Shown here: positions 62,978-64,000 of the stretch, piece after piece | Layout: every line of letters starts with the position of its first letter | Position numbering within the stretch: position 1 is the stretch's first letter | Assembly (NCBI RefSeq): GCF_003334305.1 | Contig: NZ_QOWS01000009.1 | DNA: 64,000 nucleotides | Source: Escherichia coli | GTDB taxonomy: Bacteria > Pseudomonadota > Gammaproteobacteria > Enterobacterales > Enterobacteriaceae | Reading direction: 5' to 3' (one strand) | Made by a program: the position numbers and the translations under genes | The notes under the pieces: generated by a model | Databases searched by the model: none | What the model was told of the DNA's origin: nothing | What the model saw: the letters and a program-made list of their open reading frames with translations, nothing else

Positions 62978-63361
62978 TTATTTTCCGTGGCCAAAATTCA
63001 GAATTCTCCCATCATTTTTGCCTATTTCTATAATAAAAACCCCACCAGCAATTTGGTCTGAGTGAATGGTACCTTCAACAACCCAACTTGTTGTTAACTC
63101 AGTGATTTCGTATGGTTTTTCTTCTTCTGCGGCATCCTGTCCATAACGATTCTTAACATATATCTCAGCTAATTCCAATGCTATAGCTTTATTTTTAACC
63201 AAATTTCTAACGGTATATTTACCTTCACTTTCATACTTGCGCATTATTTTAATATTATTATTACACTGTGCCCATGTGTTGTATGTAAAAACAAACAAAG
63301 ATACAATGACACAGTTCCTAAACAATATTTTTTTACATATTACCATGAACTCTGCAGACAT
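62978..63361 (-). CDS. putative Rhs immunity protein with N-terminal signal-like segment
   Basis: 127-aa ORF; start overlaps rhsA stop by about 29 nt; N-terminus [23 protein letters not shown]. Confidence 0.55.
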
Positions 63362-64000
63362 TAGGTAATCCTTTTCTGTTTGTTATTTCCTTCCCGTGGT
63401 TATCTATTGCTTTAAAATTACCACTGGGCGTACCTAAATAAAATGACTTGATATTGTTATCTTTACTTTTAACTATTTTCTCATCTTTACCTGAAAATAT
63501 TTCGTCCCAATATTCTCCATGACTATCTGCACCATGAGTATGATAAGCTGATACTTTCTCAGTACCATTAGGGCAAGGGCTATTGAATGGATATGATCCT
63601 TTTCTTTCTCCTCGGTTAGGTGCTGTTGAGAAATATCTGCCACTATTATCCTTACATATTAAACCAGCGAACTCTTTATCTTCGCAAATAGATTGGCTAT
63701 TTATTTTATTTAAGGCGTCATATGCGGTGCTATCTATAGAATCAAATTTATCTGGACCTATCATAGCGGATAGTGTGCCGCAAAGACCATTAGTACATGC
63801 CCCCGATTTTGCATCCTCCCACATAGATAAACCCAGGGGGTCGATGTCTGATATCGGATTCAATTGATATCCATACAGGTTCCATCCCCCCTTCAGTCCA
63901 ATCGGATCCTGAGTGATATATCGCCCCTGCAGCGGGTCATAATAGCGGTGGCGGTTGTAATACAGGCCGGACTCCTCATCATACTGCTGCCCCGGCAGCC
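63333..64000 (-). CDS. rhsA: Rhs protein 3' end with polymorphic C-terminal toxin tip; gene continues beyond window end
   Basis: Frame reads ...[58 protein letters not shown] then a 164-aa cysteine-rich tip; the ORF-track 63333-63863 entry is the portion after the first in-window Met. Confidence 0.85.
63857..64000. repeat. Rhs core-end homology block (copy 1 of 3)
   Basis: Near-identical to 61560-61706. Confidence 0.85.

Follow-up and report, generated by a model that had tools for sequence, protein, structure and literature searches.

Genes at the end of the window

The present analysis deals with the C-terminal toxin tip of an Rhs protein and with yhhH, the small gene that overlaps its coding region, which lie together at positions 62978–64000 of a stretch of 64,000 nucleotides from Escherichia coli (contig NZ_QOWS01000009.1 of assembly GCF_003334305.1; "the window" denotes the whole stretch). 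All features described below are located on the minus strand. The rhs reading frame enters from beyond position 64000 and terminates, according to its translation, with the stop codon at 63333–63335. Its first portion (63828–64000), which is partial because the frame runs off the window, encodes the C-terminal end of the Rhs core, and in strain H15 the annotation of the same DNA reads rhs element protein. The core closes with the demarcation and autocleavage motif DPLGL (63828–63842), and the subsequent 164 amino acids (S1 to M164; 63336–63827) represent the toxin tip, which is 100% identical to that of RhsB from E. coli K-12 (P16917). The yhhH gene (62978–63361) encodes a protein of 127 amino acids that is assigned by Pfam to the immunity family Imm-NTF2-2 and is identical to the YhhH protein of K-12.

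The start of yhhH overlaps the rhs stop region by 29 nt (63333–63361). The same overlap is present in the annotations of H15 and K-12 made by the Prokaryotic Genome Annotation Pipeline, an overlap of this type is also found in a Salmonella homologue, and this arrangement suggests translational coupling of the two genes. A Shine-Dalgarno sequence (AAGGA; 63369–63373) could be read 7 nt 5' of the yhhH start codon ATG, and a scan for promoters and terminators revealed nothing above the shuffled expectation. The content of guanine and cytosine amounts to 29–38% in the tips and immunity genes compared with 56–62% in the rhs cores.

The comparison with K-12 MG1655 documents that the tip and its small neighbor are an already known pair, with a single difference in the 1,023 nt that range from position 62978 to 64000 and cover the rhsB 3' end together with yhhH. 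What differs is the genomic site. The gene order yibF (on the far side, as seen in H15), rhs, yhhH, yibA, orphan rhs fragment, yibG, yibH, yibI, mtlA identifies the location as the rhsA locus and not the rhsB locus, while the tip and the small gene are of the RhsB/YhhH type. The first-pass annotation of this DNA had spoken of an rhsA tip, which is correct for the site and misleading for the tip, and it had overlooked that the family is named and present in K-12 and that a nuclease prediction already exists in the literature. The rhsA locus of K-12 harbors a different tip that is directly followed by yibA. In the window, about 32 nt of the 3' end of this K-12-type RhsA tip (62893–62924; ...SRQSNDKKR*) persist just upstream of yibA (62031–62888), which encodes a HEAT-repeat protein without signal peptide. 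Since the cassette of RhsB-type tip and yhhH has displaced the older RhsA tip, yibA is best understood as an orphan immunity gene.

The full-length reference was strain H15, which shares positions 62900–64000 with the window base for base. The Rhs protein of H15 comprises 1,411 amino acids and starts with MSGKPAARQGD, a PAAR-like motif as read by eye. The region 62900–64000 is covered to at least 80% in 2,686 of the 5,426 complete E. coli genomes.

The toxin tip and its cysteines

Residues 33–151 of the tip (63375–63731) match the Pfam family DUF4329 (PF14220; E 5.8e-40, model positions 2–114 of 116). This domain, which follows DPLGL of the Rhs core and is immediately succeeded by the overlapping Imm-NTF2-2 gene, is equivalent to Tox-JAB-2 of Zhang et al. 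2012 (PMC3482391), who named the family, described its conserved residues E, H[ST]H, S and D and proposed Imm-NTF2-2 as the immunity partner. The domain, the conserved residues, the association with RHS proteins and the immunity family are all the same in the current study. As a word-indexed search with the tip retrieved nearly exclusively fragments from E. coli, homologues were collected by an exhaustive search of cluster representatives, which yielded 757 representatives of DUF4329 at E <= 1e-3; in most of them the domain forms the C-terminal tip of an RHS protein or of another polymorphic toxin. NCBIfam yielded no family for the tip or YhhH, and sequence and profile searches against the PDB at E <= 10 revealed no solved relative of either protein, but only chance matches to internalin C with E ~0.5.

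The first-pass annotation had noticed an H-x-H...S-x-x-D pattern with non-canonical spacing that resembles a metal-dependent hydrolase, and this reading is substantiated by the alignment and the predicted model. Across 113 diverse homologues the conservation amounts to 100% for E52 (63672–63674), the predicted catalytic glutamate of the JAMM motif that is also invariant in the broad alignment, and to 99% for H96, 96% for T97, 99% for H98, 95% for S112 and 93% for D115. The latter residues (63483–63542) would provide the zinc ligands (both histidines and the aspartate) and the oxyanion serine, as judged from their conservation and the model. A chance pattern is refuted by the conservation of these residues in 93–100% of the homologues. 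The predicted fold is of the JAB/MPN type, with the HxH motif closing strand 90–97 and the S/D pair opening helix 113–120 as in JAMM enzymes. We therefore regard the tip as a predicted zinc hydrolase of the JAMM type with the complete catalytic set E52, H96, H98, S112 and D115.

The strict JAMM motif E-x(n)-H-x-H-x(7)-S-x-x-D is not present, since all residues are there and the spacer between HxH and S comprises 13 positions. This length is typical for DUF4329, with 12–13 residues in most members, sometimes more and never the canonical seven. The spacer of seven is found in the JAMM/MPN+ zinc isopeptidases (AfJAMM, Pyrococcus JAMM1, Rpn11, AMSH, BRCC36 and CBASS Cap3), none of which matches the tip at the sequence level, even when a profile is compared with the PDB. 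Further differences from these enzymes are the extra N-terminal helices of the tip, its putatively Cys-tethered tail and the predicted site of action outside the cytoplasm.

The tip contains exactly six cysteines (GAC, GLC, SIC, LIC, SPC and NVC), in agreement with the initial count of at least six. Their proportion of 3.7% exceeds the 0.72% observed in the 1,247 amino acids of the H15 Rhs core, with a binomial P of 0.0013 at the core rate and of 0.012 at a rate of 1.15%. All six are retained in the paralogous RhsD-type tip, which exhibits 53% identity to the RhsB type, and in three other relatives at 44–55% identity. C11, C16, C48 and C158 are limited to the enterobacterial clade, and the distribution of C58 and C85 over the 113 domains (both present in 47, both missing in 49, only C85 in 16 and only C58 in one) supports a pairing of these two residues by co-variation, whereas C11–C16 and C48–C158 are proposed pairings. 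Disulfide stabilization, as hinted at in the first-pass annotation, is accordingly plausible for the enterobacterial clade, where C58 and C85 co-vary and the six cysteines are kept. A family-wide role of disulfides was rejected. Twenty of the 113 domains are free of cysteine, 36 have an even and 57 an odd number without any bias towards even parity, and a lone C85 is common; the last two observations indicate that disulfides are at best specific for a clade.

C85 (63573–63575) is part of a C-P-x-G motif just before the HxH strand, in which P86 is conserved in 89% and C85 in 59% of the domains. Because it often lacks its proposed partner C58 (16 of 113), C85 may have a role other than disulfide formation, for example near the active site. 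One E. coli relative (locus L019, 1159–1459) harbors an Imm-NTF2-2 gene after the DUF4329 tip in which a frameshift separates the signal peptide from the domain, and its toxin has lost C48 with five cysteines left; this locus looks like a decaying cassette.

Predicted export of YhhH and its counterparts

The assignment of YhhH to Imm-NTF2-2 is based on a match over the full length of the Pfam model PF15631 (E 3.4e-26; model positions 1–68 on residues 60–127). This domain is preceded by the hydrophobic N-terminus of the 127-amino-acid reading frame that had attracted attention at the outset together with the overlap. The segment consists of a charged n-region (KK, R), an uncharged h-region of 11 residues with a mean hydropathy of 2.4–2.75 and the sequence NTWA/Q, where the slash marks the putative cleavage site. 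A heuristic analysis of the n-, h- and c-regions found a tripartite signal with a suitable -3/-1 site and predicts a Sec signal peptide comprising amino acids 1–31 (63269–63361) with cleavage after TWA. In homologues at 65–83% identity the sequence of the signal segment varies, while its hydrophobicity and the N[GT]WA site are maintained. Two alternatives were rejected: a lipobox, since WAQC carries Q at position -1, and an internal start at M40, which would give a cytoplasmic protein of 88 amino acids, since the signal immediately precedes the domain in distant homologues.

The predicted model of YhhH is composed of a low-confidence N-terminal helix, a minimum of the pLDDT (predicted local distance difference test) at residues 30–33 and a well-predicted alpha+beta domain from residue 55 to 127. 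The modeled domain resembles cystatin, PepSY, VirB8 and NTF2-like folds, and among the matches are folds of inhibitors and immunity proteins that function outside the cytoplasm (PepSY propeptides of secreted metalloproteases, cystatins and the periplasmic immunity protein for colicin M). A conspicuous feature is the very end of the protein (62978–62989). Imm-NTF2-2 proteins from E. coli to Treponema terminate exactly two residues past a conserved histidine (...NFGH-GK), and this position is occupied by His in 16 of 19 aligned sequences, by Cys in the Treponema member and by Arg in the two most distant ones. It is tempting to speculate from the alignment that the C-terminal tail may be metal-ligating and aimed at, or plugging, the zinc site of the toxin.

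Evidence for export also comes from the partner genes of other DUF4329 toxins. All 17 downstream genes examined, i.e. yhhH and 16 others, encode a signal peptide, a lipobox or an N-terminal membrane anchor. The 16 additional partners originate from six metagenomic or genomic contigs, seven genomes that were identified by a pattern scan and three more enterobacterial paralogues. The pattern scan used the alignment of the Cys-free sub-clade and covered seven loci (Serratia, Planctomycetota, Pseudomonadales, Treponema, Acidobacteria, Victivallales and Kiritimatiellae). Exported-type partners accordingly span at least seven phyla or lineages, and Cys-free toxins are among those accompanied by them. 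In a crude test for a hydrophobic N-terminus, 14 of 14 partners were positive compared with 12 of 49 neighboring control genes (Fisher p = 2.6e-7); the product of yibA, the immunity gene of another tip in the array, was negative. The partner of the RhsD-type tip, YbbC, carries the sequence LFAC, which fits a PROSITE-style lipobox.

A profile search for further distant homologues of Imm-NTF2-2 added ten proteins, nine of which start with a signal peptide or lipobox. Members of the family occur in Serratia, Pseudomonadales, Treponema and metagenomes, and due to these distant members Imm-NTF2-2 is not restricted to E. coli. In both respects our results differ from the description by Zhang et al. 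(PMC3482391), which implies a cytoplasmic immunity protein found in "E. coli only", whereas the family is here predicted to be exported and taxonomically wider. As judged from their N-termini, immunity partners of the exported type are typical of the DUF4329 toxin family as a whole, and the secreted immunity protein that the first-pass annotation had suggested is supported by the regions of the YhhH signal, their maintenance in homologues and the uniform type of the 17 partners.

Site of toxin action

Among type VI effectors, an immunity protein located in the periplasm indicates that the target lies in this compartment, as exemplified by Tae/Tai, Tge/Tgi and Tle/Tli. Export signals are present in YhhH and in its relatives from many phyla, so that the periplasm is the probable place of action of the tip and the designation RNase would not apply to it. 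We consider it rather probable that the tip is a periplasm-acting, zinc-dependent amidohydrolase released from a PAAR-type Rhs protein, with exported YhhH as its immunity protein. The periplasmic toxin envisaged in the first-pass annotation is hence supported computationally, namely, through the exported-type partners in the whole family.

According to this proposal, the Rhs cage would cut off the tip of 164 amino acids after DPLGL, and the PAAR-bearing Rhs protein would ride on the type VI secretion spike and deliver the tip. Within the target periplasm the tip would function as a zinc-dependent amidohydrolase on an amide or isopeptide bond of the envelope, and in the enterobacterial clade it could be oxidized by the Dsb system of the target, with up to three disulfides. 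YhhH, whose translation would begin at the start codon within the overlap with rhs, would pass through Sec, lose its signal peptide after TWA31 and then bind and block the incoming toxin in the periplasm, so that sister cells would be protected. Amide or isopeptide bonds of the cell envelope, for example in the peptidoglycan stem peptide, the cross-link or the Lpp–peptidoglycan link, are the most likely, albeit speculative, class of substrate. A more far-reaching version, which we deem unlikely in its entirety, holds that Tox-JAB-2 proteins would be the first antibacterial toxins with a JAB/JAMM fold outside the cytoplasm, i.e. zinc isopeptidases that cut an envelope amide bond (cross-link, stem peptide or Lpp link), are locked by disulfides in the victim in the case of enterobacteria and are blocked by the C-terminal histidine of the immunity protein, the third residue from its end, in the zinc site.

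Several points weigh against a periplasmic toxin with an exported immunity protein. The signal peptide calls are the outcome of our own heuristic and of sequence reading and not of SignalP, and the n-region of YhhH is unusually long with 16 amino acids. The odd cysteine numbers and the lone C85 presented above restrict disulfides at best to one clade. The window contains no type VI genes, and it covers neither the PAAR motif nor any type VI system. No experimental work on DUF4329, Tox-JAB-2 toxins, E. coli YhhH or YbbC was found in the literature. An in-silico survey of Salmonella pathogenicity island 6 (SPI-6) listed the reading frames adjoining Rhs-DUF4329 genes with "no TM or signal peptide / CdiI domain" (TM, transmembrane segment), an entry read from the published table; the Rhs proteins of this survey exceed RhsB in length by about 180 amino acids and possibly have an additional domain at the C-terminus. 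Finally, the sole published functional prediction for Tox-JAB-2 is that of a nuclease, which was proposed by analogy to RadC (Zhang et al. 2012, PMC3482391). Later in-silico papers pass this prediction on as "RNase". The label reportedly goes back to Ma et al. 2017.

The nuclease prediction leads to the first alternative, a cytoplasmic nuclease or RNase whose JAB domain cuts nucleic acid as proposed for RadC and is neutralized there by YhhH, with a hydrophobic N-terminus that is either irrelevant or due to a mis-called start. The profile search that had been suggested beforehand as a check of the tip retrieved just this family, DUF4329/Tox-JAB-2, and the literature prediction attached to it is that of a nuclease, an outcome that the first-pass annotation had counted against its own reading; this prediction is itself at odds with an exported immunity protein. 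Given that exported partners are the rule across lineages, the RNase label probably names the wrong compartment, and we regard the cytoplasmic alternative as improbable. A second alternative retains the periplasmic side and replaces the sacculus peptidase by a JAB/deaminase-like fold that hydrolyzes lipid II or undecaprenyl-linked precursors, acyl or amide bonds of lipoproteins, or a specific protein of the periplasm or outer membrane. Such a target appears to be just as improbable, because the complete JAMM residue set is a signature of amide and isopeptide hydrolysis, and the matches to deaminases and LpxI are far weaker than those to JAMM enzymes.

The third alternative is a silent relic that was moved by rhs recombination. 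Such a cassette would be neither expressed nor delivered (a type VI system is absent from K-12) and would lack a current function, and its cysteines would bind a structural metal instead of forming disulfides. This reading is in line with the mosaic nature of Rhs arrays, the adjoining orphan yibA with its 32-nt stub of a former toxin, the subsequent orphan fragments and frameshifted immunity genes and the lack of a conspicuous promoter or terminator, but we judge it very unlikely, since the catalytic residues, the six cysteines, the overlapping start and the signal peptide are all intact, about half of the complete E. coli genomes (2,686 of 5,426) contain an undamaged copy of the cassette, and paralogous pairs of the RhsD/YbbC type keep all such features at about 50% identity, which argues for purifying selection on the cassette.

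The periplasm-acting amidohydrolase proposed here can be compared with known toxin systems. It would share its logic with Tae/Tai and Tge/Tgi, where by analogy a toxin directed to the periplasm is combined with an immunity protein bearing a signal peptide. The effectors of these pairs are small cargo proteins with NlpC/P60 or lysozyme-like folds, whereas the RhsB tip is an Rhs-encapsulated JAB fold with an NTF2/cystatin-like inhibitor. Another parallel, compared by description, is the sister family Tox-JAB-1 of Bacteroidetes, whose immunity partner Imm65 is a lipoprotein with signal peptide and lipobox (Zhang et al. 2012, PMC3482391). Like the RhsB tip, it is an RHS-linked JAB toxin with an exported-type immunity protein, but its JAB domain falls into a clade of its own (NxxxE, HxH, S, D), and the immunity families of the two toxins are unrelated.

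Further remnants are located downstream in the array. An orphan Rhs C-terminal fragment (61045–61989) has a tip after DPQGL that contains GGHG...SCNTG and is without a Pfam match even at E <= 10. It is followed by yibG (60572–61033), whose Sel1/TPR-like (tetratricopeptide repeat-like) product exhibits a signal-peptide-like start, MKACLLLFFYFSLIGQLHG/AD. Together they (60572–61989) may represent a second periplasm-acting toxin/immunity pair, as far as can be read from the sequence. The adjacent region 59428–60540, corresponding to 5529–6639 of the H15 locus L001, comprises a frameshifted immunity gene of the Imm57 family and an rhs core fragment with an internal stop according to the H15 annotation. 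Displaced tips and orphan immunity genes of this kind commonly make up the tail of such arrays.

In conclusion, the RhsB tip and YhhH belong to a known family whose mechanism is probably mislabeled. RhsB/YhhH and RhsD/YbbC are both present in E. coli K-12, and annotation papers hand on the "RNase" label. If our proposal is correct, a family of 757 cluster representatives would add the JAB/JAMM fold to the short list of periplasm-acting interbacterial toxins, and this fold, which is otherwise known from the deconjugation of ubiquitin-like proteins, would have a new role outside the cytoplasm.
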